Part shown: one piece after another, positions 7,057-38,781 of the stretch
Layout: each line of letters begins with the position of its first letter
Position numbering within the stretch: position 1 is the first letter of the stretch
Assembly: GCA_043818055.1 (NCBI GenBank)
Contig: JBDRGF010000031.1
Location: 1-38,971, forward strand
DNA from: Pseudomonadota bacterium
GTDB taxonomy: Bacteria > UBA10199 > 2-02-FULL-44-16 > JBDRGF01
Direction of reading: 5' to 3'
DNA length: 38,971 nt
The notes under the pieces: model-generated
What the model saw: the letters and a program-made list of their open reading frames with translations, nothing else
The model's database searches: none
What the model was told of the DNA's origin: nothing
Translations under genes and position numbers: made by a program

Positions 7057-7084
7057 ATTATCGGCATATATTCAAATTTGTTTC
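7057..7084 (-). promoter_or_regulatory. Putative sigma28-like promoter (GAAAC-N15-CCGATAAT)
   Basis: Minus strand GAAACAAATTTGAATATATGCCGATAAT, about 45 nt upstream of ATG 7011; matches a motif seen before several other genes. Confidence 0.6.
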
Positions 7085-7150
7085 GTGTATGAGTGATATA
7101 TTTTAATATCAATATGTGAAATGTTTAGACCCGTGCGGGTTGATAGATTG

Positions 7151-7567
7151 CTATTCCCCTATAATCTTCACCAACACGCGCTTTTTCCTTTTGCCATCAA
7201 ATTCGCCGTAGAAGATGCGTTCCCAGGTACCCAGATCTAGTCTTCCATCTGTTATCGCCACCACCGATTCCCTTCCCATTATCTGTCGCTTCATGTGGGC
7301 GTCGGCGTTGTCCTCACCGACGTTGTGCTTGTATTGAGAAACCGGTTCATGTGGAGCGAGCTTTTCTAGCCATTTATCGTAGTCGTGATGCAAGCCCGAT
7401 TCGTCGTCGTTGATGAAGACGCTTGCTGTTATGTGCATCGGATTGACGAGGACCAGACCCTCTTTGACACCACTCTCGTCGATGCACTCCTGTACATCAT
7501 CCGTGATATTCACAAATGCTCTTCGCGTTGGGATATTGAAGAAGAGTTCCTTTCGGTAGCTTTTCAT
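7151..7567 (-). CDS. yjbQ: YjbQ/UPF0047 family protein (secondary thiamine-phosphate synthase)
   Basis: Motifs [35 protein letters not shown]. Confidence 0.92.
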
Positions 7568-7586
7568 GGGCCCCCCGGTTTAATTT

Positions 7587-7655
7587 GTAGGGGCAGGTTT
7601 CAAACCTGCCCGTGAATGGTTGCAGATGGCGGGCGGGTTTAAAACCCGCCCCTAC
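7587..7655. repeat. GTAG-family REP doublet (REPIN-like)
   Basis: GTAGGGGCAGGTTTCAAACCTGCCC ... GGGCGGGTTTAAAACCCGCCCCTAC, two REPs in inverted orientation. Confidence 0.85.
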
Positions 7656-7667
7656 GCATGGCTTGTT

Positions 7668-8147
7668 TTAACTTAATTTCTTCACCAAATCTGCCACGCG
7701 CTTGCCCATGAGGCGCGCGTTTTCTATCGTCTTTCCTTCCGGCTTGCCGACGCATGCTACGCCGTAGTGGCCGGTGGCACTTATAGGGTCGCCGACTATG
7801 ACCATGCCGTAGATCAACATCGCTTGAATGATAGAGAGTATCGTAGTCTCCTTCCCACCTGTCGCATCGCCAGCGGTTGTGAATGCTGCGCCTACCTTTC
7901 CCTCCATCTCCTTACGAACGCCGACATATTTGTCGAAGATGAGTTTTAACTCCGCTGCCATCGAGCCGAAATAGACGGGGGATCCCGCGATGATTCCATC
8001 CGATTTCACAAAGTCATCCTTTGTAACCTCAGCTGTCGATCTTGTGATGCAATCGATCCCCTCGACTCCATTTACCCCTTCGGCGATAAATTCCGCCAAC
8101 TCCTTTGTATGACCAGATCGAGAATAATAAAGAATAAGAATTTGCAT
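7668..8147 (-). CDS. WrbA-like flavodoxin / NAD(P)H-dependent oxidoreductase
   Basis: YYSRSGHTKELA FMN-phosphate loop, GSPVYFGSM, GKVGAAF, GGKETT. Start moved to the ATG after GGGGG. Confidence 0.9.
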   Translation of the reverse strand: MQILILYYSRSGHTKELAEFIAEGVNGVEGIDCITRSTAEVTKDDFVKSDGIIAGSPVYFGSMAAELKLIFDKYVGVRKEMEGKVGAAFTTAGDATGGKETTILSIIQAMLIYGMVIVGDPISATGHYGVACVGKPEGKTIENARLMGKRVADLVKKLS

Positions 8148-8175
8148 TATGCCCCCTTTCAAAAGAGCGCACATT

Positions 8176-8196
8176 ATGTAGGATGTAGCATGTGGT
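8176..8196 (+). repeat. Heptamer tandem repeat (ATGTAGG ATGTAGC ATGTGGT)
   Basis: Same family as 2307-2371 and 37268-37304. Confidence 0.6.
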
Positions 8197-8233
8197 GTCA
8201 AAAACAATGAGCTCCATTTCCACACTGTTATAG

Positions 8234-8605
<372 letters not shown>

Positions 8606-8629
8606 CGTCTCACGTTTGCACTTGGGGGA

Positions 8630-10822
8630 GTGATGAAAATTCAAAGTAAGCTTCTTTTATCTATCCTGTCATCGGTCATCGTTATTATGATCGCTGTCAT
8701 CTATATCAACAAAACTTACAGTGAAAAGATAATGGTGGGTGAAATTGAAAAGTATGCCAAGAGCATGCTGGATTCTTATTCGAATGAGTTAAATGATGAT
8801 ATCGCATCACTTCAGGATGTTGCTCAAGGGCTCGCGTTTTCCGTTGAAGCGCTAAAACCTGAATCTGAAGATCAAATTAAGGATCTCATAAAAAAATTCC
8901 TAAACTCAGCTTCTGACGCGTTCGGTTCAACGATAGCCTTTGAGCCCGGGGTTTTTCACGAGAAGGAGTATTTTGCCCCATACTATTATAAGACAAAGGA
9001 TGGGATAAAATATAAAAATTTGATCGACCCAAAGTATAACTATCCAAAATTGGACTGGTATCGGATTCCAAAGGAGACAGGAAAGCCGTTCTGGACAAAT
9101 CCTTATGAAGATGTGGGTGGCGGCAATGTCGTCATGATGACTTATTCTTATCCCCTCTTCAACGATGGAGTATTTTTAGGAGTTGCAACTGTCGATGTAG
9201 CGATCAAAGATCTGACAGACATAATAGAAGCGATTAAGGTCGCAAAGACCGGCTATGCCTTTCTGATCAGCAAGGATGGAACGATCATATCGTCGCGTGC
9301 GGAAGATTGGAAACTTAAGAAAAATATCATCGCTGCTGAAAAGAAGAGCAAAGTGTCGGATATGGAAATGATAGGTAAGAGGATGCTTTCTGGAGAGAAG
9401 GGATTTGTTCTAACAGAGGAGGCTATCTCCGGTGTTCCGGCCTGGTATGCCTTTGGAGCTATTCCTCTTACAGGATGGTCGCTCGGCATAGTATTTCCAA
9501 AGGATGAGCTGCTCGCCGATCTCACCAAATTGAGCCGGCATATTATTATAATGTGGATTGGTGGAATTTTGCTCATTTCGATTATTATAATCATCATCTC
9601 GATACGGATTAGCAAACCGATCACCAAACTGGCCGGCTGCGCTGAAAAAATAACTGAGGGTGATTTCACAGGGGAGCTAAGCTTTCCAAAAATCACCAGC
9701 GATGAGACAGGCATTCTCACACGGGCTTTTATCAGAATGAGGGGGTCACTCTCAAAAACGCTTCAAGCGCTTAAGTCAGAGAAAGAAATGTTTCAGATCG
9801 GATTCTCTCACATGTCGGATGGTATATTGATTCTCGATGCGGATTGGAAGCCGCTTCAGTATAACCAATCAGCCTCAAAGTTTTTAGCCCTTCCGACCGA
9901 AACCCCGCTCATCGAGCACATACAAGCACACTACGAGAGCTCCATCCCATTCAGTCAGATGACCAGCTTGTCTAACAAGGGCGGTTCTTTTAAATTATCC
10001 CGCCTTGAAAGGGACAATATAGGGTCACTGCACCTCTCTTGTGTGTTGAATCCGATCTACGATGACAGCAAAAAGCTGGTCGAACAGGTCTTAAGCATCA
10101 CCGATGTGACATCGAGTGAAATTGAGGAATCTGCAAAGAGGAATTTCCTCTCGCTCATCTCACACAAGCTCATGACTCCTCTCACCGTTCTAAACGGCAT
10201 CGTCATGCTCTTGAAGGATGGCCTTCTCGGAGTGCTCAATGATAAGCAGCAGAACAATGTTAATCAGATGTCAAACCAGACAGGGAAGTTGCAGGGTCTT
10301 ATTCAGAAGCTCGTCAACTTCGTGTTGATCGAGGAGTCGAACATCGATATGTCGAAGGAGACCATCGATCTCGATGAATTTTTTACGGCCCTTTCCAAGG
10401 AGGCCGCAAACTGGTTTCCGGAGAAACACGCTGTGATAGATGTGCATGTCGATGAAGCGGCAAAGCGTTTTTCATTCAAGAAACAATATCTCCACCTGAT
10501 ATTAGGCCAGGTTGTTGATAACGCGTTGAAATTTAATATGAGCGATCCCGCGAAGGTATCGATTGATTGCAAATCGGCAGGCGAGAACACCATCTTCGCT
10601 ATAACCGACAACGGCATCGGGATACCGCCCGAATATACGGATAAGATATTCGAAAAGTTCTTTCAGATCGAAAAATATTTCACGGGAAATGTCGAAGGGG
10701 TGGGCTTGGGCCTGTCATACGTTAAAAGGATAGTAGAATATATGGGTGGAAAGGTTGAACTCAAATCCGAGATTGGTGTGGGAAGTACCTTCACAATCAT
10801 ATTGCCGAATACTTATGCGTGA
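8630..10822 (+). CDS. Sensor histidine kinase (TM-dCache-TM-HAMP-PAS-like-HisKA-HATPase)
   Basis: dCache motif DWY...KPFWTNPYED...FLGVATVD, HAMP, H-box ISHKLMTPLT, N-box VVDNALKF, G-boxes DNGIGI and GVGLGL. Confidence 0.92.
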   Translation: MMKIQSKLLLSILSSVIVIMIAVIYINKTYSEKIMVGEIEKYAKSMLDSYSNELNDDIASLQDVAQGLAFSVEALKPESEDQIKDLIKKFLNSASDAFGSTIAFEPGVFHEKEYFAPYYYKTKDGIKYKNLIDPKYNYPKLDWYRIPKETGKPFWTNPYEDVGGGNVVMMTYSYPLFNDGVFLGVATVDVAIKDLTDIIEAIKVAKTGYAFLISKDGTIISSRAEDWKLKKNIIAAEKKSKVSDMEMIGKRMLSGEKGFVLTEEAISGVPAWYAFGAIPLTGWSLGIVFPKDELLADLTKLSRHIIIMWIGGILLISIIIIIISIRISKPITKLAGCAEKITEGDFTGELSFPKITSDETGILTRAFIRMRGSLSKTLQALKSEKEMFQIGFSHMSDGILILDADWKPLQYNQSASKFLALPTETPLIEHIQAHYESSIPFSQMTSLSNKGGSFKLSRLERDNIGSLHLSCVLNPIYDDSKKLVEQVLSITDVTSSEIEESAKRNFLSLISHKLMTPLTVLNGIVMLLKDGLLGVLNDKQQNNVNQMSNQTGKLQGLIQKLVNFVLIEESNIDMSKETIDLDEFFTALSKEAANWFPEKHAVIDVHVDEAAKRFSFKKQYLHLILGQVVDNALKFNMSDPAKVSIDCKSAGENTIFAITDNGIGIPPEYTDKIFEKFFQIEKYFTGNVEGVGLGLSYVKRIVEYMGGKVELKSEIGVGSTFTIILPNTYA

Positions 10823-10831
10823 TAATCAAAT

Positions 10832-11467
10832 ATGAAACTTTTAAGAGATAAATATAAATTGATATTAAAGCTGGTAATACCTGTGATTTTGATAATTCTT
10901 TTATCAATATTCTATGGGACTTATATCTCGCAACTCAAATCCAATGTCAGATTTAATGTTCACGGAATAGTTAATAAATCATTTTTTGTCTTTGCTGTGA
11001 TCATCATATCGTACTGGGTGAAAACGATCATCAACGCTCTATTCTCAGTCTACGCCTCAAGCTTTGCAAACAGGACGAGTGCGATGCTTGATAACGATTT
11101 TATACCACTCATTCGCAGGCTTGTGTCTATTTTTTTATGGATCATAGCTTTCACTATCATTCTCAGCTATCTGGGTGTGAACATAAGCGCGCTGATAGCA
11201 ACGCTCGGAGTTGGATCGCTTGCAATAGCGCTTGCTGCCCAGGATACTATTGCCAATATCATCGCTGGATTTCTGATTATGATCGACAGGCCATTTAAAA
11301 TAAACGACAGAATAAAATTGCCAAGCGGTGAAGATGTCGTTGTGCTCAACATCGGCATCAGGCGGTCGATCTTTCGTTCCCAGGATGGAGCTACTGTCAT
11401 CGTTCCGAACCTCGATCTGAGTAAGAGCAAGATAATAAATTATTCATACGATAAGCCGGTATTGTAA
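10832..11467 (+). CDS. MscS-family small mechanosensitive channel (short form)
   Basis: LGVGSLAIALAAQDTIANIIAG, RPFKINDRI, VIVPN motifs; lacks the usual C-terminal alpha/beta domain. Confidence 0.85.
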   Translation: MKLLRDKYKLILKLVIPVILIILLSIFYGTYISQLKSNVRFNVHGIVNKSFFVFAVIIISYWVKTIINALFSVYASSFANRTSAMLDNDFIPLIRRLVSIFLWIIAFTIILSYLGVNISALIATLGVGSLAIALAAQDTIANIIAGFLIMIDRPFKINDRIKLPSGEDVVVLNIGIRRSIFRSQDGATVIVPNLDLSKSKIINYSYDKPVL

Positions 11468-11474
11468 TTAAAAA

Positions 11475-11499
11475 GGGCGGGTTATAAACCCGCCCCTAC
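11475..11499 (-). repeat. GTAG-family REP
   Basis: GGGCGGGTTATAAACCCGCCCCTAC, nearly identical to 7631-7655. Confidence 0.85.
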
Positions 11500-11518
11500 A
11501 AATATTATTTCAATTTAT

Positions 11519-11920
11519 TTATTCTGCTTCTGCTTCGTAGTCGGAATCATCGTCCATGTCATCATCCATATCCATATCATCGTCCATATCATCGTCATAA
11601 TCATGATCGACATCGGCGATTCCGTCATCATGATCGATGCTGTCCAGCATCTCATGTGTGTCGGCGATCATATCATCGGTATCGGCAAAGAGATCGCCTG
11701 TCGATTCGGCTTCATCGCTTTCTGCTATACAGTCGTCACAGCCTGCTCCTTCCGATTCGTATGCGACATTTTCAACCTCGACGCCTTCAGCCCTCTCTGT
11801 GACTGAATCATTGTCGCTTCCTACAGAGACTGAGATGCCAAATTCAACTCCACCAGCGTATGCCCACATCGGTACGACCATCAACGCCATCAAAACCATC
11901 ATCATCCTAACCTGTTTCAT
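11519..11920 (-). CDS. Secreted, extremely acidic low-complexity protein
   Basis: Signal peptide ending AYA, CDDC, D/H/M-rich tail; strong RBS AGGAGG. Confidence 0.75.
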   Translation of the reverse strand: MKQVRMMMVLMALMVVPMWAYAGGVEFGISVSVGSDNDSVTERAEGVEVENVAYESEGAGCDDCIAESDEAESTGDLFADTDDMIADTHEMLDSIDHDDGIADVDHDYDDDMDDDMDMDDDMDDDSDYEAEAE

Positions 11921-11958
11921 AAATCCTCCTTTTTACTGTTTAATTTTCACTCATGGTT

Positions 11959-11987
11959 ATTATCGGTTATCCTTCATCAAAAGTTGC
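11959..11987 (-). promoter_or_regulatory. Putative sigma28-like promoter (GCAAC-N16-CCGATAAT)
   Basis: Minus strand GCAACTTTTGATGAAGGATAACCGATAAT, about 39 nt upstream of ATG 11920. Confidence 0.7.
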
Positions 11988-12058
11988 TACCGGTTACAAT
12001 TTTTTATCGTTTATAATCTATTTGTGATGGTTTGATGGAAAAGGTTGCCTGGAAAGGC

Positions 12059-12182
12059 AGTGAATAGTGTTTAGTGCGTAGTGTTTAGTGAAAAAACCTT
12101 AATTTATTCATAGTTAAGGTTTTTTGGTTATTTGAACATTTGAAATTTATTTGAGTTTTGGGATTTGTTATTTGGAATTTTT
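12059..12182. repeat. Heptamer-period intergenic repeats
   Basis: AGTGAAT AGTGTTT AGTGCGT AGTGTTT AGTG, then TTTGGTTATTTGAACATTTGAAATTT...TTGGGATTTGTTATTTGGAATTT. Confidence 0.6.
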
Positions 12183-12183
12183 T

Positions 12184-13236
12184 TCAAATCCACTTCTTTT
12201 TTCTGAAAAAGATGAGCATGACGACGACTACGGAAAGCATGATGGCAAGGGCGAATGGGTAGCCGTATTTCCATTTGAGTTCGGGCATGTATTCGAAATT
12301 CATGCCGTATACGCCGGCGATGAATGTCAGGGGTATGAAGATAGTTGCGATGATGGTTAGCACCTTCATGATGCTGTTCATCTTATTGCTGATCGTCGTC
12401 AGATACATGTCGAGCATGCCGGAGAGGATATCCCTGTATGTTTCGACCGCATCTATGATCTGGATCGTGTGATCGTACACATCACGGAAATATATAAATA
12501 TCGATTCTCCGATGAGTGGCGATTCGCTGCGTTGCAGACCACCTATCAACTCCCTCAGCGGCCATACTGATTTTCTTAAGACGATCATCAACCTTTTCAG
12601 GCGGTGAATGTCTTTTAGCAGCGCCGGGGTTGTTACGGAAATTAGCGTGGTTTCGATCGATTCGATCTTGTCACCTATTTCCTCAAGTACGACAAAGTAG
12701 TTGTCGACGACAGCATCGATCAAAGAGTAGTAGAGGTAATCAGCGCCCATTTTTCGCATGCGCCCCTTACCGTTTCGGATTCTCTCCCTTGCGTTGTCGA
12801 AAACATCCCCCTCCTTCTCCTGAAAGGTGATGACGCAGTTTTTGCAGAGCAATAAACTCACCTGTTCGAAATCGACATTCTTGTTCAGTGTGAGCATCCT
12901 GAGCACCGAGAATATGTACTCCTCGTAGTCCTCCATCTTTGGGCGCTGGTCGGTATGGAGAATATCTTCGAGGACGAGCGGGTGGATGTTGAAAATCGCC
13001 CCTATCTTTTCAATTATGCCGACATCGTGTATGCCGTTGACGTTAATCCATTTGACGGAGGGTTTATCTAAGAACTCTTTACAATCTTCTATATTGTGGA
13101 TTTTTTTTTCTTCGTAGGCCGCATCGTTGTAGTCAAAAATGGTGATTGAAACATTCTGTGCCTTTTTTTCACCTACATGTTTTAACGTTCCGGGTGCTGT
13201 CCACACCTTCTCTTTTCTGCTTCTGAATAAACGCAT
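12184..13236 (-). CDS. corA: Magnesium/cobalt transporter CorA
   Basis: HPLVLEDI..TDQRPK, YFRDVYDH, signature YGMNF and MPEL. Confidence 0.96.
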   Translation of the reverse strand: MRLFRSRKEKVWTAPGTLKHVGEKKAQNVSITIFDYNDAAYEEKKIHNIEDCKEFLDKPSVKWINVNGIHDVGIIEKIGAIFNIHPLVLEDILHTDQRPKMEDYEEYIFSVLRMLTLNKNVDFEQVSLLLCKNCVITFQEKEGDVFDNARERIRNGKGRMRKMGADYLYYSLIDAVVDNYFVVLEEIGDKIESIETTLISVTTPALLKDIHRLKRLMIVLRKSVWPLRELIGGLQRSESPLIGESIFIYFRDVYDHTIQIIDAVETYRDILSGMLDMYLTTISNKMNSIMKVLTIIATIFIPLTFIAGVYGMNFEYMPELKWKYGYPFALAIMLSVVVVMLIFFRKKKWI

Positions 13237-13272
13237 GGTTTTCCCCCTGTTTGTTTCGCATCAGAACCTGTC

Positions 13273-14871: not shown

Positions 14872-15000
14872 CGGGCAATGACCCTATATGAAAATATTTT
14901 TAAAAGCAAGTTCGACGGTTGGCGAACAGCCGTCAGTTATAAGCTTTTGGCTTCTTTTATATATATTCAATTGAGTTTTTAGGCCTAAGGTGATAGGAAA

Positions 15001-15423
15001 ATGGCCATGAGGGTAAGATTGAACATTTCAAAAGAGAAACAACAGGCCCTGGAGGAGCTCGGAGTGGGTGTCTTGTTTTTGTTTGGGTCCAGGGCTCAGG
15101 ATATAGCCAAAGCAAATAGCGATTACGATATCGGGCTTTTAATGACCGACTCCGATTTAATTAAAAAAGGGAATCAGGAGTTGTATCAGGCAATCTTTGA
15201 GATCTTGTCTGAAGTGATAGGCGAACTTGTGAACATTGATATCGTTTTTCTGGATAGAGCCTCTCTTCAGCTTTGCTACCATGTGGTCAAACATGGAAAG
15301 GTAATCTTTGAAACAAACCCAAATATGAGGGTAAAGTTTTTTGAACGTGTTATCAGAGAACATGCCGATTTTGAAGAATATCGCAAATTATTTGAGGAAA
15401 CGACGCTTAAGAGAATCGCATAG
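15001..15423 (+). CDS. MntA-type minimal nucleotidyltransferase antitoxin
   Basis: GSX10DXD motif (GSRAQDIAKANSDYD) and IDIVFL; upstream of a HEPN gene. Confidence 0.9.
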   Translation: MAMRVRLNISKEKQQALEELGVGVLFLFGSRAQDIAKANSDYDIGLLMTDSDLIKKGNQELYQAIFEILSEVIGELVNIDIVFLDRASLQLCYHVVKHGKVIFETNPNMRVKFFERVIREHADFEEYRKLFEETTLKRIA

Positions 15424-15432
15424 GAGAACAAG

Positions 15433-15894
15433 ATGGTTCCAGTTCCATTGGATAAAGAGACGTTGGTTGTGAGATTGAATGGCATAGAGGGTGAAATGGC
15501 AGAACTCAAGCGCTTAGCCAAAACCCCCTTTAATGATTTTAAAGACTCAGATCCATTTAAACTTGCGCAATATCATCTTCACAGGGCTCTTGAAGGAGTG
15601 TTCAATATAACAGCGCATATTCTTTCCAGAATTCCCGGTGGGGGACAAGCCAGCAGCTATAAGGATATGGCTATTGCCCTTGGTGAACATGGAATTGTTG
15701 ATAAGAATTATGCTAATAATAAGCTGAGGTTGATGGCTGGGTATAGAAATCGTCTCGTTCATTTCTATGCCGAAATCACTTCGGAGGAGATGTACAAGCT
15801 GATCAATAAAGATTTGGAAGATTTTGATGTTTTTCTTTCAGGCGTGAAAAAAGTTCTTGAAGATCCACAAAAATGGAATCTTGAAGTGGAATAG
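15433..15894 (+). CDS. HepT-type HEPN (DUF86) RNase toxin
   Basis: RX4HXY motif RNRLVHFY; paired with MNT. Confidence 0.9.
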   Translation: MVPVPLDKETLVVRLNGIEGEMAELKRLAKTPFNDFKDSDPFKLAQYHLHRALEGVFNITAHILSRIPGGGQASSYKDMAIALGEHGIVDKNYANNKLRLMAGYRNRLVHFYAEITSEEMYKLINKDLEDFDVFLSGVKKVLEDPQKWNLEVE

Positions 15895-15911
15895 CATCTC
15901 ACGAGTGTAAT

Positions 15912-18575: not shown

Positions 18576-18585
18576 GATTCACCTG

Positions 18586-19202: not shown

Positions 19203-19212
19203 GTCTTTTAAT

Positions 19213-21532: not shown

Positions 21533-21560
21533 GCAACTTTTATCAAACTCATCCGATACA
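21533..21560 (+). promoter_or_regulatory. Putative sigma28-like promoter (GCAAC-N15-CCGATAC)
   Basis: GCAACTTTTATCAAACTCATCCGATACA, about 50 nt upstream of the porin ATG. Confidence 0.6.
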
Positions 21561-24345: not shown

Positions 24346-24365
24346 TAGACTGTTGATTCAGTTAT

Positions 24366-24548: not shown

Positions 24549-25313
24549 ATGTTCCAAAATATCAGTGAAGCACAGATCAGTAAGGCAATCGTCGGTGAAT
24601 TTAACGAGTGGTTTCAGGATTATATCATTTCAGATGTAATCATTGTTGGTGGTGGCCCAAGTGGTCTTATCGCCGCAAGAGATCTCGCAAATTCAGGAAT
24701 GAAGACGCTTGTAGTTGAAGCTAATAATTATATCGGCGGTGGTTTTTGGGTCGGTGGTTATTTAATGAACACACTAACGTTTAGATCTCCTTCTAATGAA
24801 ATCCTCGATGAGCTTAAAATTCCATACAAAAGGGCAGATGAAGGACTATTTACAGCAAACGGCCCTCACGCATGTTCAAAGCTTATCTCTGCCGCATGTG
24901 AAGCTGGCGCGAAAATATTAAACTTAACTAGTTTCGATGATGTAGTCTACCGTAATGGAAAAGTTGAAGGAGTTGTAATAAACTGGACTCCTGTCAAAAG
25001 TATGCCAAGACAAATCACTTGTGTAGATCCAATATCGATAGAAGCTAAAATAGTAATTGATGCCACTGGTCACGATGCACATGTCTGTCGAAGTTTAGAG
25101 AAAAGAAAAATAATCAAGTTAGTTGGTTTTGGACCAATGGATGCAGATAGTTCCGAATCACTCGTTGTAGAGAAGACTGGCTTTATTCATCCAGGCCTTG
25201 TCGTAACAGGTATGGCGGTTTCGACTGCATACGGTGTTCCACGCATGGGCCCAACTTTTGGTGGGATGTTATTTTCAGGCAGAAAAGCAGCTAAGGCTAT
25301 TAAAGAGTTATGA
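24549..25313 (+). CDS. thi4: Thi4-family thiazole (ADT) synthase, Cys-type
   Basis: DVIIVGGGPSGL, GGGFWVGG, TCVDP (Cys158), IDATGHDA, PRMGPTFGGM. Confidence 0.93.
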   Translation: MFQNISEAQISKAIVGEFNEWFQDYIISDVIIVGGGPSGLIAARDLANSGMKTLVVEANNYIGGGFWVGGYLMNTLTFRSPSNEILDELKIPYKRADEGLFTANGPHACSKLISAACEAGAKILNLTSFDDVVYRNGKVEGVVINWTPVKSMPRQITCVDPISIEAKIVIDATGHDAHVCRSLEKRKIIKLVGFGPMDADSSESLVVEKTGFIHPGLVVTGMAVSTAYGVPRMGPTFGGMLFSGRKAAKAIKEL

Positions 25314-26335
25314 ACACGTTCATTCGAATTATAGATGTAAACCTTAATCGCCTGCGAGAGGGATTGCGACTTCTTGAAGATGTTGCACGTTTTATAATTG
25401 AAGATGATGTTTTAACTTTTAAATTAAAAGAGTTTCGTCATAAGATAAAAAATCTTATTAAAGAAGATCTAATCTCTCATCGGAATAGTATAAATGATTT
25501 TGGTAAAAATATTCACACAGAAGAAGAGCTTAGTAGGTCTGGTTTGCTTGATTTGACTTGCACCTCTTTTAAACGAGTTCAAGAGTCGCTTCGAGTTTTA
25601 GAGGAAATTGTAAAAGTTACAAATAGTAATTCTGCAATTTCATTTAAAAATTTGAGATTTGAAGCGTACGATCTTGAGAAGTTCTTCGTTAAATCAATTG
25701 TCCCCTTTGTGCGCAAAAAAGTACCCAATCCACTGCTTTATTTAGTTCTTTCTTTAGAGGATTGCGGTGACAACGATCCACTGGAAATTGCCGAAATAGG
25801 GCTATCTGCCGGCGTTAAAATGTTGCAACTCAGATGGAAAATTTTGCCAGACTGCAAAATTCTAGAGCTTGGAAAAAAACTAAAATCAATTTGTAATCAA
25901 TATAATGCTCTATTCATTGTAAATGACCGTCCAGATATCGCGCTCTTGCTTAAATCAGACGGCCTTCACCTTGGTCAAGATGATATCAAGCCTTCTATAG
26001 CCAGAAAAATTGTCGGTAGTGAAGCGGTAATAGGTCTATCGTGTCATAACATAAAACAATTAAAAAAAGCGCATAGTGAGCCAATAGACTATGTAGGAGT
26101 AGGCCCAATCTTTTTCACAAAGACAAAAAGAAATCCATCTCCTACAACGGGAGCTGGGCTTCTAGCAGAGATTCACAATATCAAAATTCCCGCAGTGGCA
26201 ATCGGAGGCATTACGCCAAAAAATCTAAATGAAATAGTTCAGTTTGGATGTCGTAGAGCAGCAGTGGTTACTGGAATCACAATGGCCGCTGACATTAGAC
26301 TTAAAACAAAAGAATATTTGGAGGTATTACAGTGA
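25310..26335 (+). CDS. thiE: Thiamine-phosphate synthase with N-terminal ThiD2-type helical domain
   Basis: N-terminal RIIDVNLNRLREGLRLLED...RVQESLRVLEE; C-terminal QLRWK, NDRPD, HLGQDD, AIGGI. Confidence 0.92.
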   Translation: MNTFIRIIDVNLNRLREGLRLLEDVARFIIEDDVLTFKLKEFRHKIKNLIKEDLISHRNSINDFGKNIHTEEELSRSGLLDLTCTSFKRVQESLRVLEEIVKVTNSNSAISFKNLRFEAYDLEKFFVKSIVPFVRKKVPNPLLYLVLSLEDCGDNDPLEIAEIGLSAGVKMLQLRWKILPDCKILELGKKLKSICNQYNALFIVNDRPDIALLLKSDGLHLGQDDIKPSIARKIVGSEAVIGLSCHNIKQLKKAHSEPIDYVGVGPIFFTKTKRNPSPTTGAGLLAEIHNIKIPAVAIGGITPKNLNEIVQFGCRRAAVVTGITMAADIRLKTKEYLEVLQ

Positions 26336-27258
26336 CTCAACTTTCAGCAGCAAAACACGGTGTTACTACAAATGAAATGATAGAAGTATCAAAGTATGAA
26401 GGGATTCCAGTAACTAAAGTCAGAGATTCGATTGCTGATGGGAATATAGTAATCCCGTACAATCCTAAGCATGCACCAAGTAGAGTGCGCGCTATCGGAG
26501 AAGGAACGAGGGTTAAAGTTAATGTTAATCTTGGAACATCCGAAAATAATGTCGACTTAGATCTTGAACTGAAAAAAATTGAACTTGCACAAAACTTAGG
26601 GGCTGATGCAGTCATGGACTTAAGTACCAGCGGCGATTTAAAAATGATTAGAAGCGAAATCCTCTCAAGATCTGAAATTCCAGTTGGGACGGTCCCTTTA
26701 TATGAAATTTTTGAGCTGGCAAAAAGTCGTGATGGTGATTTTGCTGACATGTCCATAGATGACATCTTTGAAGTAATAGCCCGGCAAGCTGAAGATGGAG
26801 TCGATTTTATGACAATACATGCCGGTATCAATCGATCTAGTTTAGAGAAATTGCACAAACAAGAAAGAATTTTAGGTGTTGTAAGTCGGGGAGGTGCTCT
26901 GCTTTCCTATTGGATGAAAAAAAATAATAAAGAAAACCCACTATTCGAACATTATGATGATTTATTAAATATTATGGCAGACTATGATGTGACTCTGAGT
27001 TTGGGTGACGCGCTTCGTCCAGGTTGCATCAATGACGCAACAGACAGAGGGCAAATGGAAGAATTGCTCATACTTGGAGAAATGGCAGACAGGGCTCGCG
27101 ATAAAAATGTGCAGGTAATAATAGAAGGTCCGGGACATATTCCACTCGACCAGATTGCTTTAAATATCAAAATTCAAAAGTGTGTCAGTCGAAACACGCC
27201 TTTCTACGTTTGTACGATGTGTGGCAACTTCTGTGCAATCAAACTAGGCCAATCTTAA
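26332..27258 (+). pseudogene. thiC: Phosphomethylpyrimidine synthase ThiC with internal in-frame deletion (or assembly collapse)
   Basis: KVNVNLGTS, MDLS, GTVP, HAG, VSRGG, SLGDALRPG, EGPGH present, but PFYV is joined directly to the terminal CTMCGNFC. Only 308 aa versus roughly 420-440 for short-type ThiC. Confidence 0.8.
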
Positions 27259-27369
27259 AAAATCAATTATGACATAGCCTCGTTGTTCAGGATGACATCT
27301 ACAAGGCGTTTTTCAACAGCCCTTTGTTCTTATCAAACGCAGGACGGGCGTCGGCTGATAAACCATATT

Positions 27370-27654: not shown

Positions 27655-27659
27655 ATGTG

Positions 27660-28094: not shown

Positions 28095-28367
28095 ATATTT
28101 AATTATCAATAAAACTGTCCAAAAATTTACGTCCCTGCCCGTTTTTAAAAGCCTGATAACTTTTGCAAATCCATTGGCAACTTATGTATCGTAAACCAGC
28201 ACTAATAAAGCAGATACACTTATTATATCGTAAAAAATGACTTGCTTCTCTATCACCATAGATTCTCCTTGTAAAGAGGCAAAAAGGGGGTTATTCAACG
28301 TTCTCATATGCTTTGAATTCAATATGTTCACGTGGGTTGTTCTCAGGTCATTTTCTTAAAAAAATAA

Positions 28368-28394
28368 GCAACATTTTCAGGAAATTGCCGATAA
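28368..28394 (+). promoter_or_regulatory. Putative sigma28-like promoter (GCAAC-N15-CCGATAA)
   Basis: GCAACATTTTCAGGAAATTGCCGATAA with a perfect GCCGATAA, about 42 nt upstream of ATG 28437. Confidence 0.72.
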
Positions 28395-28436
28395 GTTGAG
28401 TGATACTCTATAATAATATTAGCATCGGGATAATAC

Positions 28437-32699: not shown

Positions 32700-32704
32700 A
32701 AAGA

Positions 32705-32733
32705 GCAACATTTTTACGATATTAACCGATAAT
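32705..32733 (+). promoter_or_regulatory. Putative sigma28-like promoter (GCAAC-N16-CCGATAAT)
   Basis: GCAACATTTTTACGATATTAACCGATAAT in the 63-nt gap between the two large FHA genes. Confidence 0.72.
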
Positions 32734-32762
32734 AATGTAACAACAGAGATTTGGAGGAAGTT

Positions 32763-35700
32763 ATGGTTGTAAAATTAATAAGGCCGGGCGGGGGTTTTGC
32801 GAATCCTTTTTTGAACAAGCAGATGGGTGCCGGAATCTCATCGCCCACAGCTGGTGACCAGTCTGTTTTTTCCCAACATCAGGGTAAGAACTATTTGGTA
32901 TATACTCAGGGTGATTATGAAAATTCGATACTCTATGGTAATAATAAGAGTGCCGCTACTTTTTCCCCCTCGGGAAAAGACCGCCTCAGCATTCAATATA
33001 ATAGCCTTGTAGAAATAAAAGGGGCTGCAAGGGCTCAAAACGAAGATGAATATCAAATTTCAAAGCTCCGTTTCGGTGACACGCTCAAAATCTCCGGCGA
33101 GGAGTTTATGCTGGTCGATGGCGATCGCTTCGGCGAGAGAAAACTGGAAGTTCCGCCATTTCAATCACTTTATGAAGATTTGCGACAAGTGGATGTAAAA
33201 ATTTTCTCCCTCACGCAATCAGCCGAAGGTAATTTAGAGATCGATGGTACAGGGAGTGAGAAGGGTTCGATCAGTTACAAAAAATCGTGGTTGCCGCTTA
33301 GCTGGAATTTACGTGCGCCTGATTGGAAATTTAGCACTGCTGGCTTTGCGTTTGGAGCTTTTCTCATCTGTTGTACGGATTTCGATATTCCGCTTACTTA
33401 TTTCGTCCCTTGGGCTGTAAGATCAGCTCTCAGGGTGTTTTCTGGTTTTCACTTTACCCCGAAAAAACCCAGGGTTGAGCTTTCTGATAAAAAATATAGA
33501 ACTCTTCCATCATTAGAAGGTAGCCGCGAGTTTTCGACGCCGCTTTATGCACAATGCAACTCTAAACTCTGGCAGGCGCCAATTGACAGGAAGAAGATGG
33601 AGATTTATGGCGCAGGTGTTGAGAGAACACCAACATTTGATGGCGAACAGGTCGCAAGGCTTGTGGTGGAGAGGCCAAATCTAAAGAGGTTCGGTTTGGG
33701 GCTATTAAATATTGTATCATGGCCTCTCAGATTTCCGTTCGGTATTCAGAGGATGAGAAAGTGGGATGTCAGACTCTATCCTAATAGTGAAGGTGCTGTG
33801 AGTGTGATGCGAGGAAATGAGACTTTTGATGTTGAAGAGAAAGGAATTGTTCTTCGAGATAGAGACTTGGTTAGTATCAACGGGAAGAAATTCGTAGTTG
33901 ATTTTAAAAAATGGAATCACAAACTGCCCCCTTGGTCGGAGGTGAGGGTTTTGAAAGAGAAGTCAGAGGTAAGAAGCCAGATGTCAGAAACACCAGCACC
34001 CGCAGCTGAGACAGCGCCTGCAACAACGACACCGCCACCAGAAACAGAGCCGGCGGATTCGTCAACATTGACATCCCCACCGCTGCCGACAGGAGGTTCA
34101 GGATTAGCAGAATCAACGTCAACAACACCAATGGCTCCAGGGACAAGTAGCCAGGGTCCAGGGGGAGAGCCTCCTGCAACTGAAACAGCGCCTTCAACAA
34201 CAACACCTCCGTCAACTTTGGTACCCCCGCCACAGCCAGTAGAAGATACTGATCCGGAATTTGAGATACCTATGGGCTTTGCTGTGGATGAAGCAATATC
34301 AGCTGCCTTGAGTGGAATTAATCTACCTCCCCCTCAGGAAGAATCATCTGCATCATCTGCAGGATTAGAGCCGATGAAACCTGAAGAAAAGAAAAAAACA
34401 GGCGAATCTTTTGCTATAGACGGAGCACCACAACCGGCATCTGAAGCTGGCGCAGGAGAAGGTCAAAGTGGAGATGAAAGTGGACAAAGGCAGGAACGAG
34501 ATAACATTTCTGAACCTGCTAAATTTGGAGAAAAACCAACTAATGAGAAAGAGGATGCCGAATTTTGGAGAATGCATGATGAACTAGCTCAAAAAGAGGT
34601 AGCATTAAAAGGCTTGCAACAAGCTTCCCCTGAGACGAGTGTGGATGAAGAGTTGCAACTAGGTACCTCCGACCGCATTCCGGCGGCAAAAGGCACGTCA
34701 GGTGGGTTTAAAGCTGCAATACAACAAGGAATGAAATATAAAGAATCTGAGGGTGGTGCAGCATCAAATATCCTGAGAGATTTAGGTTTACTGAGCGAGG
34801 AATTTGCTGTTAGTAACGTTTCAGAAAACGATAGAGAGGGTAGTGGTAGTGGGCTTGATAAAGTGGATGAATTTTTAGGTAGACCAGAAACACCGAAAAA
34901 TACGAATGATGCTGACCCTGTAGAGAGCCTCATAGGTCAACATAAAGCTGCACAAAATCTTATGACCGGCAGTGATAATCGCCCAGTTGTTGGGACTCTA
35001 GAATTGAATGTTGATGATGTGGTGGAAGATGAAGCTTTACCTTCCATGTCCCATGCGACTGAAGATATAGATGTCTCGGAATTGCTTGCACAGATCACCG
35101 GAGATTTTGCTGCGGTGAGGCTCATCACGCCTGTAAAGAGCAAACAACTTTTTAGCAAGGGAGTAGATGAAAAAAACAATCCGGATTATAATGCAATAGG
35201 TTTAAGACCGGGTGAGATTGTGCAAACCGTCTTTGAAGTCTATTTAAAGCTGCAAGATGGTCGAGTCACACGTTTGGGCAGTTTTCCCGTAATCACTCCT
35301 GCAACAGAAGATGATGTTGCGATCTCCGTGGGCAGTTTTGGGGATCCCGGAAGAGACCCTGTCCTGTTCAATGGAAGCGAAATTAAACTGATCGAACCAA
35401 ATCTTCCACATAACTATGCACAACTGACATTCAATAAGAGAGGTAGCGTATGGATAAGCAAGCTTTCCGGTAAAGAGGTAAAGGTGATACGAAGCGGTGG
35501 AGTCGAAGAACAGGCCTATGAAATAGGCGCCCAGCAAAACATCGTGCTGGCTGACAATAATCAATTGGAATTCGGTCGATATATATTCCGCTATCACCAC
35601 ATAAGCCCCGAACACCGCTTGCACCCGGATGATCAGGCGGCAGCGGCAGTATCGGCAGTAAACGCTTCATCAAATCAGCAAAAAAAAAAGGTAAACCCCA

Positions 35701-36503
35701 CAGGGATAGAGATTGATTATATGAATCTAGAGCATTCACCGGATATATATCATGAACATTATAAGGGAATAAGCTGGCCTGTTCTTGTGATTAAAAATGA
35801 TTCTAAATCTACAAATTGGAATAATCCTATAACTGTGGGTACGGAAGACTCAAATTGTACGGTCAGGCTGTTAGGTGTTTATAAAAGGGATGTGGGGAAT
35901 GACGTATTGTTTCAAATAGCTTCACCGATGGATTCATATAATCCTATTCGCAGTTTTGCAATAAAGTTTAATTCAGGTTCGATCGAGAACAGATTCAATG
36001 GAGCAAAAATAGGTGATAATGAATATAAGGGGCTAGGAGACAAAAATATAATCATGATAGGTGGGTATAAGATAAATATTACGTTTATAGAGAGAGGAAC
36101 CTCTGCCACTACAGATCTTCAGGCTGTTTTTAATGGAGTAAACCAAACTCCACCACCGATGAGTTATCTGATGGATGTCGAAACTGAAAAGAGACATCCG
36201 GTTTTCATGGGGAAAAAGGGGTTGGGGTTTGTAGTCGGTTCAATGCCGGATTCTCGTGGTGGGCACTGGGCGTTGACTCTGAATCATGCCGGAGTTTATC
36301 CAAAGCACTTGAAGATCACATGGGATGCTATCAATGAGAAGTTTTCAAAACAATATGCATATGATCAAAATGGAGTAGAAACCTGGACTGACAAGGTTGA
36401 TTTGAGTCACGATGAAGAGATTGACATAGCGGGCAGGAAATATAGATTTGAAATTGATGACACCCAGCTCAGTTCACCGGAAGATGCAATTAACGACTTT
36501 TGA
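32763..36503 (+). CDS. Large paralogous protein with degenerate FHA-like domains and P/T/E-rich linker
   Basis: Shares DEYQ..GD.L.I.GEE..L, LP.WS and YLMDVET segments with the upstream ORF; FHA-like ends such as LADNNQLEFGRYIFRY and LSHDEEIDIAGRKYRF; RBS GGAGG before ATG 32763. Confidence 0.75.
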   Translation: MVVKLIRPGGGFANPFLNKQMGAGISSPTAGDQSVFSQHQGKNYLVYTQGDYENSILYGNNKSAATFSPSGKDRLSIQYNSLVEIKGAARAQNEDEYQISKLRFGDTLKISGEEFMLVDGDRFGERKLEVPPFQSLYEDLRQVDVKIFSLTQSAEGNLEIDGTGSEKGSISYKKSWLPLSWNLRAPDWKFSTAGFAFGAFLICCTDFDIPLTYFVPWAVRSALRVFSGFHFTPKKPRVELSDKKYRTLPSLEGSREFSTPLYAQCNSKLWQAPIDRKKMEIYGAGVERTPTFDGEQVARLVVERPNLKRFGLGLLNIVSWPLRFPFGIQRMRKWDVRLYPNSEGAVSVMRGNETFDVEEKGIVLRDRDLVSINGKKFVVDFKKWNHKLPPWSEVRVLKEKSEVRSQMSETPAPAAETAPATTTPPPETEPADSSTLTSPPLPTGGSGLAESTSTTPMAPGTSSQGPGGEPPATETAPSTTTPPSTLVPPPQPVEDTDPEFEIPMGFAVDEAISAALSGINLPPPQEESSASSAGLEPMKPEEKKKTGESFAIDGAPQPASEAGAGEGQSGDESGQRQERDNISEPAKFGEKPTNEKEDAEFWRMHDELAQKEVALKGLQQASPETSVDEELQLGTSDRIPAAKGTSGGFKAAIQQGMKYKESEGGAASNILRDLGLLSEEFAVSNVSENDREGSGSGLDKVDEFLGRPETPKNTNDADPVESLIGQHKAAQNLMTGSDNRPVVGTLELNVDDVVEDEALPSMSHATEDIDVSELLAQITGDFAAVRLITPVKSKQLFSKGVDEKNNPDYNAIGLRPGEIVQTVFEVYLKLQDGRVTRLGSFPVITPATEDDVAISVGSFGDPGRDPVLFNGSEIKLIEPNLPHNYAQLTFNKRGSVWISKLSGKEVKVIRSGGVEEQAYEIGAQQNIVLADNNQLEFGRYIFRYHHISPEHRLHPDDQAAAAVSAVNASSNQQKKKVNPTGIEIDYMNLEHSPDIYHEHYKGISWPVLVIKNDSKSTNWNNPITVGTEDSNCTVRLLGVYKRDVGNDVLFQIASPMDSYNPIRSFAIKFNSGSIENRFNGAKIGDNEYKGLGDKNIIMIGGYKINITFIERGTSATTDLQAVFNGVNQTPPPMSYLMDVETEKRHPVFMGKKGLGFVVGSMPDSRGGHWALTLNHAGVYPKHLKITWDAINEKFSKQYAYDQNGVETWTDKVDLSHDEEIDIAGRKYRFEIDDTQLSSPEDAINDF

Positions 36504-36529
36504 TCTTATATCGGAGAATCTTTATTTCT

Positions 36530-37282
36530 ATGGCCAAAGATAATAACTTAAAAGACCTCTTCTCCCCCGATGATTATCTCTATTTCTATAGCGATCTTTT
36601 GAATGAGAAGCGCTCTGAAAAGGAGGTCGGCTTTCTCGTTGATAAATTAAGACTCAAGGCACCGATGAAGCTTCTCGATCTCCCTTGTGGATTCGGCCGA
36701 CACTCAAATCGCCTGGCAAAGCTTGGGCTCGATGTGACGGGGGTGGATGTCACGGAGGGGTTTTTAAAGATCGCTAAAACAAAAGCCGCCTCTCTCGGAG
36801 TTGAAGTGAAATATCTCAAAGGGGATATGCGAAAGGTGAAATTCAAAAGGGAGTTCGACAGGGCGATCATGATCTTCACCGCCTTCGGATATTTTGATGA
36901 CAAGGATAATTTCAGGGTGCTCAAAAATATCCATCGCGCCCTCAAGGATGATGGCATCTTCTGCTTCGATACGGTCAATAAGGATGTCTTTTCAAAACAA
37001 TATCTTCCCTTCGTCGTGAATGATAAGGATGGCGATCTGATGATCGATCGGAATCATTACGACGAAAAGAAAAGCAGGATATACAACGAGAGAATCATAG
37101 TGCGGGATGGCGTAAGGCGGGACGTTGATTATTTCCTGCGATTGTATAACCCGAATGAAATCAGAACCCTTCTCAAGAAGGCTCATTTTTCAAATGTCGC
37201 GATCTATGCCGATTGGGATGGAGCCCCTTTTACAGATGAAGATATGAGGATGATCATCGTGGCTCATAAAAGCAGCATGTAG
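36530..37282 (+). CDS. Class I SAM-dependent methyltransferase
   Basis: LLDLPCGFGRH, VTGVD, GDMR, FTAFGYF, LKDDGIF motifs. Confidence 0.92.
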   Translation: MAKDNNLKDLFSPDDYLYFYSDLLNEKRSEKEVGFLVDKLRLKAPMKLLDLPCGFGRHSNRLAKLGLDVTGVDVTEGFLKIAKTKAASLGVEVKYLKGDMRKVKFKREFDRAIMIFTAFGYFDDKDNFRVLKNIHRALKDDGIFCFDTVNKDVFSKQYLPFVVNDKDGDLMIDRNHYDEKKSRIYNERIIVRDGVRRDVDYFLRLYNPNEIRTLLKKAHFSNVAIYADWDGAPFTDEDMRMIIVAHKSSM

Positions 37283-37304
37283 CATGTGGCATGTAGTATG
37301 TGGT
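37268..37304 (+). repeat. GCATGTA/GCATGTG heptamer repeat overlapping methyltransferase stop
   Basis: 37268-37289 is identical over 22 nt to 2304-2325. Confidence 0.75.
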
Positions 37305-37317
37305 GGAAAACAAAAAT

Positions 37318-38781
37318 ATGAAGATTCGAGATTTTTTTCCCAAACCAATTTCCCCGGTTTCAGCCGATAAACAAACAATCGTGGGGGGGAGTGTTCCTTC
37401 GCCTGAGATGAGCAGGAATGTCGGGGATAATGTATTTGTGTCCAGGTTTGTTGGTTGGACTGTCAACGCTTCGAAGAATTCCGACATCAAGATTTGTCGG
37501 GATGAATTCAATTTTCCAAGACTTCTGATTTCTAATCGCAGTGTTTTTTTCTTTGGAGGAGATCATACGAGCGACGATATTCTGATTCTCAATGCCAGCG
37601 ACAGGCTTTTGGAAATCGAACCTGCATTGATATCGGGTATGAGGATCAGGCGAACAAAAGGCGATATAGAGATAAATATGTTTGAAGAGATTGAGACCAG
37701 CAGGGGAAAAAGGATCAACAAGGTCGAAATCGGAGATAGGTGGAAAAGGCTAAATCCAGAGGGTTTTATCGAGATAGATGGTCTGAGGATTAATTACAGA
37801 ATTTTAAGGGAAGAAAAGAAAGAGGCAGCTCACTCAGACTTTTTTTATGCATCACTTGTCGCCCCTGATGGTGAGGTTATTCCCATTCGACTTTTTGAGA
37901 AGTGCGCTGAGCGCAAAGGAATCGTTTTGACGAATTTTCTCTCGCCTAAGTTCGACGGTTTTTTTCCGGTCATGCTTTACGGCGAGTCCCCCTTTGCTGT
38001 GACGATATCTGTCGGAGATGCAAGTCTTGGTTCTACAACATACAGAGTTCAAAAATATATCATGGGCGGTGATGAACATTTTTCGATAGGTAATGGGTTG
38101 AGCCTTATTGAGGGGGATGGTTTTGAGCTTGAGAATGGAAAAGAATATTTCATAAGGGAATATGATCCCATCATAAAGATGCCTATTGAAATCGATTTTG
38201 AGAGAGAGGATGTGAGACAGGAAGAACCTGTCATAGTCTCTCTTAAATCCGATGCAGGTAAGATATCAAGTTTGGAAAAGGATGTACGGGATGTATCAAA
38301 TAAATCTCCCCTCTCTCCGGTGGCGCGTCCAAATCCTGAATCAGCGCATCCGAGGGCGTTCTTTGTATTTTCATCAGGCGATATGGTAGAGATTTCATTT
38401 AAAAAAGGAGCATGTCTCATCGGCTCTGAAGTGCCTGAAGGTAGGGATGGCTTTATCAAGGTCGATGATCAGAGCGTCTCACCTCAGCACGCAGGCATAA
38501 TGAGGAGAAGGGATGAAGAGGGTTTTAAGTACTTTCTAGTAGATATGGGGTCTGAGAAGGGGACTTTTCTGAATGGAGAGCAGCTTGCCCCCAAAGTCGA
38601 ACCCCAAGCGCCAAATTTATTTGAAAATGACGGAATCAAAATAGGTGATCAGTTATTTTTCTTCTATGCAGATGAAGGGATGGCTAAAAATAAGGCTGAA
38701 GAATTAAACATGAGCGATGAAGAGCGCGGGTTATGGAATGAACTTGAAGCTGCTCTTTCAGACTCTGAGAGGGATAAGTAA
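37318..38781 (+). CDS. FHA-domain protein (start may be ATG 37408)
   Basis: C-terminal FHA (LIGS...VSPQHA...LVDMGSEKGTFLNG...DGIKIG) plus N-terminal degenerate FHA-like regions. GCCGATAA at 37363-37370 suggests a later start. Confidence 0.8.
   Translation: MKIRDFFPKPISPVSADKQTIVGGSVPSPEMSRNVGDNVFVSRFVGWTVNASKNSDIKICRDEFNFPRLLISNRSVFFFGGDHTSDDILILNASDRLLEIEPALISGMRIRRTKGDIEINMFEEIETSRGKRINKVEIGDRWKRLNPEGFIEIDGLRINYRILREEKKEAAHSDFFYASLVAPDGEVIPIRLFEKCAERKGIVLTNFLSPKFDGFFPVMLYGESPFAVTISVGDASLGSTTYRVQKYIMGGDEHFSIGNGLSLIEGDGFELENGKEYFIREYDPIIKMPIEIDFEREDVRQEEPVIVSLKSDAGKISSLEKDVRDVSNKSPLSPVARPNPESAHPRAFFVFSSGDMVEISFKKGACLIGSEVPEGRDGFIKVDDQSVSPQHAGIMRRRDEEGFKYFLVDMGSEKGTFLNGEQLAPKVEPQAPNLFENDGIKIGDQLFFFYADEGMAKNKAEELNMSDEERGLWNELEAALSDSERDK

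Follow-up and report, generated by a model that had tools for sequence, protein, structure and literature searches.

The window analysed here, the 38,971-nucleotide (nt) contig C31 of a 2.93-Mb, 166-contig genome from an uncultured bacterial phylum (93.6% complete; 2568 genes called with our own gene caller), carries five copies of a bipartite promoter-like motif, GCAAC-N15/16-CCGATAA or a close variant, each standing before a gene: an HExxH-containing orphan, a small acidic protein, a porin-like protein and two very large proteins. A sequence-only reading of the window had taken these sites for the promoters of a non-flagellar regulon under a FliA/WhiG-like sigma factor with altered region-4 specificity. 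All five are present on the strand given there, 39–51 nt before a start codon (31 nt for the site at 32705), the copy before the porin-like gene ending in C instead of A (CCGATAC). Exact CAAC-N14-17-CCGATAA occurs three times in the window against 0.11 expected, a count reached in none of 100 shuffles, while CCGATAA alone is not enriched (8 against 5.1 expected). A leave-out matrix built from the other 165 contigs scores the five sites at 22.4–30.8 bits and the next best window site at 11.3 bits; the earlier reading had not noticed the motif before housekeeping genes, and no site of at least 12 bits precedes any in the window. A sixth copy, proposed at 37363, stood only in part: it has a strong −10 element, and its upstream box is absent at spacers of 13–20 nt (best −8.5 bits). 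Intergenic copies of GCCGATAA lacking the upstream box number ten, four before a same-strand start and two before an opposite one, too few to judge.

Genome-wide, GCAAC-N-CCGATA counts at spacers of 11 to 20 nt are 0, 1, 1, 1, 37, 40, 7, 0, 0 and 4, whereas TAAAG-N13..18-CCGATA occurs zero to four times per spacing without a peak. Of the 77 copies with a 15- or 16-nt spacer, 75 fall in intergenic DNA, and a start codon follows within 100 nt on the same strand for 61 and on the opposite strand for 10. The two-block matrix trained on contigs other than the window (consensus N(A/C)GCAAC(T/A)TTT ... (T/A)GCCGATAATA) finds 126 sites at 18 bits or more, against 2–8 at five shifted spacings. At 17 bits or more there are 127, with spacers of 15 nt (69), 16 nt (51) and 17 nt (7); 118 of them are intergenic in a genome that is 11.5% intergenic. 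Position and strand bias at starts, for which the earlier reading had proposed a matrix scan, are both strong genome-wide. The motif also extends across the phylum, sampled here as 93 genomes of one class (1.1–4.6 Mb): its strict form occurs in all 93 (3–95 copies, against 0–3 for a reversed-pattern control) and a looser form, counted in 61 genomes, at 13–109 copies against 0–9. [quoted passage not shown] Flagellin is found in 12/93 (11 over cut-off). The most conserved sites belong to the T3SS cluster: one precedes a needle-like gene in 14/14 loci and another the first gene of the sigma-containing run in 27/27, and 38 of these 41 orthologous sites have a 17-nt spacer. Five other T3SS-cluster genes, taken as a control, carry a preceding site in 1/116 cases. 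An SLT lytic transglycosylase has a 17-nt site both in this genome and in a relative, G006.

The genome encodes four proteins with both sigma70 regions 2 and 4: RpoD, an RpoH-like factor, an extracytoplasmic function (ECF) factor and, on contig C90, a single FliA/WhiG-like factor, the one whose existence had been proposed. The top four NCBIfam matches of this C90 sigma are all FliA/WhiG, at scores under the curated cut-offs (TIGR02479, 138.6 against 189.6; PRK06986, 117.1 against 201); WhiG and FliA are its closest solved structures, and region 3 is shortened, with no Sigma70_r3 match. Judged by these profiles, it is a divergent FliA/WhiG subfamily and not an equivalog. In the open complex of Pseudomonas aeruginosa sigma28, reading of the −35 box falls to S224 and Q228, that of the extended −10 to R97 and that of the flipped base to D66 and Y76; for fliC the boxes are (-36)TCTAAAG(-30) and (-15)GCCGATAA(-8) (PMC12784957). 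Aligned to that structure (chain numbering minus 5), the C90 sigma keeps D109, F/Y119, R140 and S260 at the positions of D66, Y76, R97 and S224, R140 being invariant among orthologues; at the position of Q228 it has R264, a Gln-to-Arg change invariant in 26/26 orthologues. Its recognition helix reads SKSWxSR in place of xESRxSQ. Helices of the SKSW..R type occur in 119/120 close homologues and 124/149 distant representatives; the bearers among the 20 of these 149 that were looked up include a Hyalangium/Stigmatella cluster, with SKSWASR, and Acidobacteriota metagenome-assembled genomes. A 15-nt spacer puts GCAAC at −34 to −30, where TAAAG sits in FliA promoters. The altered region-4 specificity claimed earlier fits these residues, the change in region 4.2 falling on a position used for −35 reading in P. 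aeruginosa sigma28. We infer that the C90 sigma pairs with the motif; carried over from the fliC register in PMC12784957, the site at 28368..28394 has a predicted transcription start near 28402.

The sigma gene lies between sctJ and a gene for what we take, from its resemblance, to be an inner-rod-like protein, followed in order by fliG-like, sctL, sctN, sctO, fliK-like, fliM-like, sctQ, fliO-like, sctR and sctT; sctV and sctU lie apart from this cluster, on C159 and C88. SctR scores 239 (cut-off 208.6) against 200 for FliP (217), and SctV 785 (692) against 681 for FlhA (772), both injectisome rather than flagellar assignments. The cluster ATPase passes both the SctN and the FliI clade 2 models, and the ring protein is YscJ-sized, with SctJ its best match yet under the cut-off. 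In agreement with the non-flagellar nature proposed for the regulon, no flagellin is encoded in this 93.6% complete genome. The nearest Atlas clusters of the sigma factor and of the needle-like protein are mostly Myxococcota, and from Atlas taxa and named homologues the C90 T3SS appears to resemble the myxobacterial type. Three secretin genes occur elsewhere in the fragmented assembly and none on C90: one at a pil/type II secretion-type locus (C127), one at a Tad locus (C20) and one beside a T2SSE ATPase gene (C15). Two small genes precede the sigma gene. The first leads its operon and encodes a conserved protein that is translocator-like by appearance only. The second, hypervariable in sequence and conserved in position, is by that position a candidate anti-sigma factor or substrate; folded with the sigma factor, its product gave scores of 0.00, 0.41 and 0.02, and Pfam and NCBIfam identified no FlgM, RsiG or other anti-sigma factor among the T3SS-cluster genes. 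Plasmid searches returned nothing beyond ordinary FliA and ThiC. Separately, sctV lies directly upstream of rpsU-yqeY-dnaG-rpoD, and a 30-bit site stands within dnaG, 1.3 kb upstream of rpoD (L095:3406; G000:C159:83405, minus strand).

Table 1. Features of the window and of related loci. Positions without a prefix are those of the window; C, G and L are our handles for other stretches.
Feature	Position	Strand	Remarks
Promoter-like site GAAAC-N15-CCGATAA	7058..7084	-	28.1 bits, matrix trained without this contig; 47 nt before HExxH orphan
HExxH orphan, 358 aa	5935..7011	-	HELFH at residue 163; without signal peptide; no Pfam match at E<=1, no NCBIfam match
Promoter-like site GCAAC-N16-CCGATAA	11960..11987	-	27.3 bits; 40 nt before acidic protein
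Acidic protein, 133 aa	11519..11920	-	45 D/E; hydrophobic signal-peptide-like N-terminus; no Pfam match
Promoter-like site GCAAC-N15-CCGATAC	21533..21559	+	22.4 bits; 51 nt before porin-like gene
Porin-like protein, 382 aa	21610..22758	+	signal-peptide-like N-terminus; weak ExtI porin match, E 5e-4
Promoter-like site GCAAC-N15-CCGATAA	28368..28394	+	30.8 bits; 43 nt before FHA protein 1
FHA protein 1, 1420 aa	28437..32699	+	two FHA domains
Promoter-like site GCAAC-N16-CCGATAA	32705..32732	+	29.5 bits; in 64-nt gap, 31 nt before ATG 32763
1246-aa orphan (earlier "FHA protein 2")	32763..36503	+	distantly paralogous to FHA protein 1 (20% over 506 aa)
GCCGATAA alone, sixth copy	37363..37370	+	-10 15.2 bits; upstream box absent; unconfirmed
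FHA protein 3, 457 aa	37408..38781	+	distantly related to a gene on contig C60 that is itself motif-led
FliA/WhiG-like sigma, 304 aa	C90:4080-4994		Pfam regions 2 and 4
Needle-like protein, 167 aa			before TPR chaperone gene (weak SycD/CdsG matches); conserved C-terminal helix
142-aa conserved protein	L006:2849-3277		leads sigma operon; Gly/Ala-rich hydrophobic segment; translocator-like by appearance only
Hypervariable 110-140 aa gene	L006:3291-3695		directly upstream of sigma in most loci; position conserved
Group II-like intron, ends and copies	G000:C165:39290-39656 (L100:12429-12795) and 10 other ends; L175:1-825 (G045); L176:187-640 (G038)		
IS1380-family transposase	L153:323-1783 (G000:C16:16122-17582)		related short repeats elsewhere
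rve_3 transposase of the 15-16 nt element family	L070:5153-6403		

The genes led by these sites are unusual as a group. A same-strand gene follows within 260 nt of 102 sites, and for 78 of these 102 first targets no Pfam family passes the cut-off, while 24 of the 26 non-target genes of the window have one; targets longer than 800 aa make up 15%, against 5% genome-wide. Annotated targets comprise proteases, lytic transglycosylases, helicases, HEAT, TPR and FHA proteins, GGDEF and PilZ proteins, a serpin, YidC and a transporter of the major facilitator superfamily (MFS). Low Asp/Glu (D/E) and high S/T/P/Q/N content at the N-terminus marks T3SS signals, and this composition is found here. Over residues 2–26, targets longer than 100 aa and lacking a signal peptide (n=81) contain 6.0% D/E and 34% S/T/P/Q/N, against 12.4% and 24% in 1600 other proteins (p about 1e-16). 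The bias is confined to the first ~50–100 residues, has faded by residues 101–200, and holds in comparison with other operon-leading genes (71 against 753). About 0.45 Mb fetched around known sites in two relatives, G006 and G009, yielded 53 targets, of which 44 are without a Pfam match at E<=1e-5 and 41 without a match in this genome; for seven, signal-peptide proteins among them, the best match here is itself motif-led. The N-terminal bias is replicated in G009 for S/T/P/Q/N (p=4e-5; D/E, p=0.12).

In the window, the HExxH orphan (12 S/T/P/Q/N and one D/E in its N-terminal 25 residues), FHA protein 1 (11 and none) and the 1246-aa orphan are, from their sequences, candidate T3SS substrates, and the acidic protein would be a target of Sec rather than T3SS type. 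At E<=1e-12, none of the other 92 genomes of the phylum has a match to FHA protein 1; for FHA protein 3 there is a single weak one among them. The label "FHA protein 2", which the sequence-only reading had given to the 1246-aa orphan, was not borne out: neither Pfam at E<=1 nor a genome-trained FHA profile finds an FHA domain in it. The porin-like protein has homologues in 73/93 phylum genomes; its site was considered as a core member of the regulon and rejected, since in relatives just 4 of 24 homologous genes have a site before them, which makes it a labile target. As for the partner that the substrates might meet, two weak hints, the finding of no ankyrin repeats and an RNA-polymerase alpha-CTD-like domain in one G006 target, point to a bacterial rather than a eukaryotic one.

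Elsewhere in the window are a ThiD2-ThiE fusion and a ThiC open reading frame (ORF; 25310-27258), the latter stopping at position 290 of a model with 420 positions, just ahead of a GIY-YIG gene that lies on the opposite strand, and possibly truncated, as well as a nucleotidyltransferase-HepT toxin-antitoxin pair (15001-15894). Outside it, this genome has a partial match to TLC (ATP/ADP translocase-like), looked for like ankyrin as a hallmark of eukaryotic hosts (E 5e-13; G000:C141:49301-49879), and at least eight paralogous genes of ~2.3–2.7 kb with 75–82% DNA identity, one with a subtilase domain (C109:11289-14027 and stretches on C34, C99, C87, C38, C100, C103 and C35).

We consider it probable that the motif is the promoter of the FliA-like sigma factor encoded in the T3SS cluster, which would switch on the late parts of the machine and about 80 mostly orphan, putatively exported proteins. 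In such a scheme, GCCGATAA would be the −10/extended −10 box, read by the conserved region-2 residues, and GCAAC would take the place of TAAAG, read by the changed recognition helix; the C90 sigma would load polymerase on GCAAC-N15/17-GCCGATAA, and transcription would start about 8 nt past the box. The 17-nt sites would serve for the needle-like subunit and for the sigma-containing operon, a possible positive feedback, and the 15- and 16-nt sites for rapidly replaced substrates together with some Sec-exported envelope proteins. The flagellar logic, in which late genes and export substrates are placed under sigma28, would thereby have been copied onto an injectisome-type machine.

Several observations limit this proposal or weigh against it. 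A groundwater RNA run contains DNA of this genome only as contigs, and cover is flat across intergenic stretches too, so that DNA carry-over is possible and no start is readable. Within the T3SS cluster there is neither a secretin gene nor a match to any needle, tip or translocon family, although cargo would have to cross the outer membrane. The needle-like call rests on a neighbouring Atlas cluster with PF09392 (T3SS_needle_F) on 11% of its members and on a low-confidence AlphaFold model (pLDDT 52.5), the protein having no sequence match in the PDB. No site lies within 400 nt of this genome's own sctV, sctU or sigma gene, although sctU has one in G009. Seventeen of the 102 first targets begin with a hydrophobic stretch (Sec or membrane), and ordinary proteins also occur among the targets (YidC, MFS, a DEAD helicase, uridine kinase, serpin, OmpA). 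In G006 the first 25 residues do not replicate the N-terminal bias (p=0.62 and 0.09). Start codons, moreover, are those of our own gene calling, and disordered ends may occur in orphans for unrelated reasons.

Part of this evidence would suit a broader function, in which the same sigma factor and promoter run a general life-stage programme, as FliA does in the attack phase of Bdellovibrio, with the T3SS one client among several and most orphans not substrates. In Bdellovibrio, FliA accounts for 92 of the 140 attack-phase promoters, with many non-flagellar genes among those driven (PMC3627812); here, Sec-type lipoproteins, a porin, cyclic di-GMP proteins (GGDEF, PilZ) and proteases are among the targets, signal-peptide proteins are among those common to relatives, a strong site stands inside dnaG upstream of rpoD, and the N-terminal bias lacks clear replication in G006. 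We regard this broader function as rather unlikely, though well ahead of the other alternatives below: the T3SS cluster holds the most conserved sites, none lies at those Tad and type IV pilus loci that were examined, and the N-terminal bias is limited to the first ~50–100 residues. The two accounts overlap and differ only in the fraction of targets that is exported. The lifestyle programme of lineage-specific genes that had been proposed from the window is supported as a non-flagellar regulon; its generic attack-phase label is less apt than that of a T3SS-and-substrate regulon, because the sigma gene and the most conserved targets lie in the T3SS cluster.

The AAC of the upstream box resembles ECF −35 boxes, and the genome encodes an RpoH-like and an ECF sigma factor; either of these, or RpoD with an activator, might read the motif instead. 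We consider this very improbable, since the −10 equals the sigma28 consensus GCCGATAA (PMC12784957) at the N16 spacing of Bdellovibrio FliA, a sigma28-like gene co-occurs with the motif phylum-wide and lies downstream of a conserved site, and no chaperone or stress genes are among the targets scanned.

Mobile elements have repeatedly inserted next to these promoters. Repeated DNA lies within 200 nt upstream of 42/127 sites, and all 11 ends of one element abut ACGCAAC, the element being inserted antisense directly upstream of the GCAAC box. Read on the other strand, it begins with GTGCG and contains a hairpin that aligns to the stem of exon-binding site 1 (EBS1) of Rfam group-II-D1D4-3; the EBS1 loop, GCGCAAC, is complementary to the seven bases before the junction and matches the upstream box. 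An 816-nt copy without an ORF in G045 begins GTGCG, ends AT, has two terminal hairpins and occupies the same promoter position, as does a partial copy in G038, a genome of another family. Rfam D1D4-3 and D1D4-1 align in order, under threshold (E 0.39 and 0.24); RF00029 is not matched, no cognate reverse transcriptase (RT) was identified, and the hairpin gave nothing in metagenome scans and no plasmid match. By its sequence, the element is possibly a promoter-homing intron. Among other intergenic ACGCAAC-W-W sites, 14/21 are such promoters, so EBS1 pairing together with selection could explain 11/11 without any reading of the −10. A conventional group II intron with an RT ORF (L172:1-1807; G000:C30) lies directly downstream of a motif-led operon and might provide RT in trans.

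For an IS1380-family element, counted with the short repeats derived from it, 8/15 ends lie exactly 13 nt before GCAAC (2/15 are at contig ends), and two further element families end 11 nt (4/5) and 15–16 nt (2/2) upstream of the box. TnGBS and ISLre2 likewise insert at a fixed distance upstream of promoters that stay intact, 15–17 bp from sigmaA promoters (PMC3942029), and class C group II introns target motifs such as terminators and attC, promoters being absent from the three target types listed in PMC4424553. What inserts here, by contrast, is an IS1380-family element (13 nt) and a group II-like intron with a match between its EBS1 loop and the upstream box. The elements exploit the promoters and not the reverse. 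That the motif is no host promoter at all but a footprint of such elements (their target sites or ends), as the 42/127 sites with upstream repeats and the 11/11 abutting ends might suggest, is hardly credible and largely refuted: 85/127 sites have no such repeats, the T3SS sites stay conserved among orthologues of different families where elements are missing, the intron-like element occurs in few genomes and the motif in 93/93, and spacers vary between copies, which places the motif outside the repeats.

All 11 flagellated genomes of the phylum have a second, canonical FliA (nine were fetched and aligned). Upstream of their flagellin genes (L131-L141), TNAAG-N15/16-CCGT occurs in 10/13 cases and the GCAAC type in 0/13; as the TNAAG pattern was taken from those 13 sequences themselves, the shuffle control for the first count is too favourable, a caveat on this line of support for our proposal. 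Five more TNAAG-N15/16-CCGT copies lie in the flagellar region of G076. With a canonical −35 and a changed −10, these flagellin promoters (TNAAG-N15/16-CCGT(T/C)) are the mirror image of the GCAAC promoter. This suggests that two sigma28 paralogues have split the ancestral promoter, one changing its −35 and the other its −10, and are orthogonal within one cell.

Parallels with known systems are partial. FliA and WhiG promoters of E. coli, P. aeruginosa and Streptomyces share the −10/extended −10 GCCGATAA and the residues that read it, whereas here GCAAC stands for TAAAG and SKSWxSR for xESRxSQ, region 3 is shortened, and neither flagellin nor FlgM was identified. Bdellovibrio bacteriovorus FliA, with the attack-phase consensus TTAAG-N16-CCGATA (PMC3627812, PMC5430801), offers a similar picture, a sigma28 that has become a global regulator with ~100 promoters, many of which precede uncharacterised genes, and its −10 and spacing are the same; three of the five bases of the upstream box differ, and that FliA is flagellar and drives a Tad operon, while the sigma factor here is encoded with the T3SS. 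No motif site was found at the Tad and type IV pilus loci examined in this genome, its Tad locus (L155:1039-5967; G000:C20) comprising an RcpA-type secretin, RcpC and TadE/G.

The secretin-less T3SS of myxobacteria branches first among non-flagellar systems (PMC3459982). In Myxococcus xanthus this "needleless" T3SS* (mxan_2434-2464) is needed for prey lysis, with effectors hypothesised only (PMC12075869, PMC10849154, PMC12428579), and the pairing of Tad with T3SS is published as restricted to Cystobacterineae (PMC3459982, PMC12075869, PMC12428579). The system described here is similarly a secretin-less non-flagellar T3SS; it differs from these accounts in being phylum-wide in small genomes, with Tad RcpC in 28/93, and in having a sigma factor within the cluster, which the published passages on T3SS* do not mention. 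A search of the literature, mostly without subscription papers or supplements, found no description of the motif or the regulon.

Taken together, our findings point to a divergent subfamily of sigma28, to a new −35 box and to a regulon centred on the T3SS, and extend to this phylum a T3SS type published as restricted to Cystobacterineae. As a sequence tag, the motif can lead to candidate T3SS substrates in these 93 uncultured genomes, a search in which homology is of no help since the targets are orphans. The T3SS here still has FliA-, FliG-, FliM-, FliO- and FliK-like genes and bears on the transition from flagellum to injectisome, and the flagellated relatives offer a natural example of sigma orthogonalisation. 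A predatory or host-attached way of life would fit such a machine, suggesting a lifestyle for a phylum that papers mention in passing. We put forward as a real but tentative possibility that a myxobacterial-type T3SS operates phylum-wide under a sigma28 inherited from the flagellum together with it, whose rewired −35 box tags the full and fast-evolving effector arsenal, up to ~100 genes, of small-genome bacteria that prey on or parasitise other cells, and that, with the same sigma subfamily present in cultured myxobacteria, the same promoter may lead to the missing prey-lysis effectors of Myxococcus T3SS*. Cultured myxobacteria share the recognition helix, and the substrates of their T3SS* thereby become testable.

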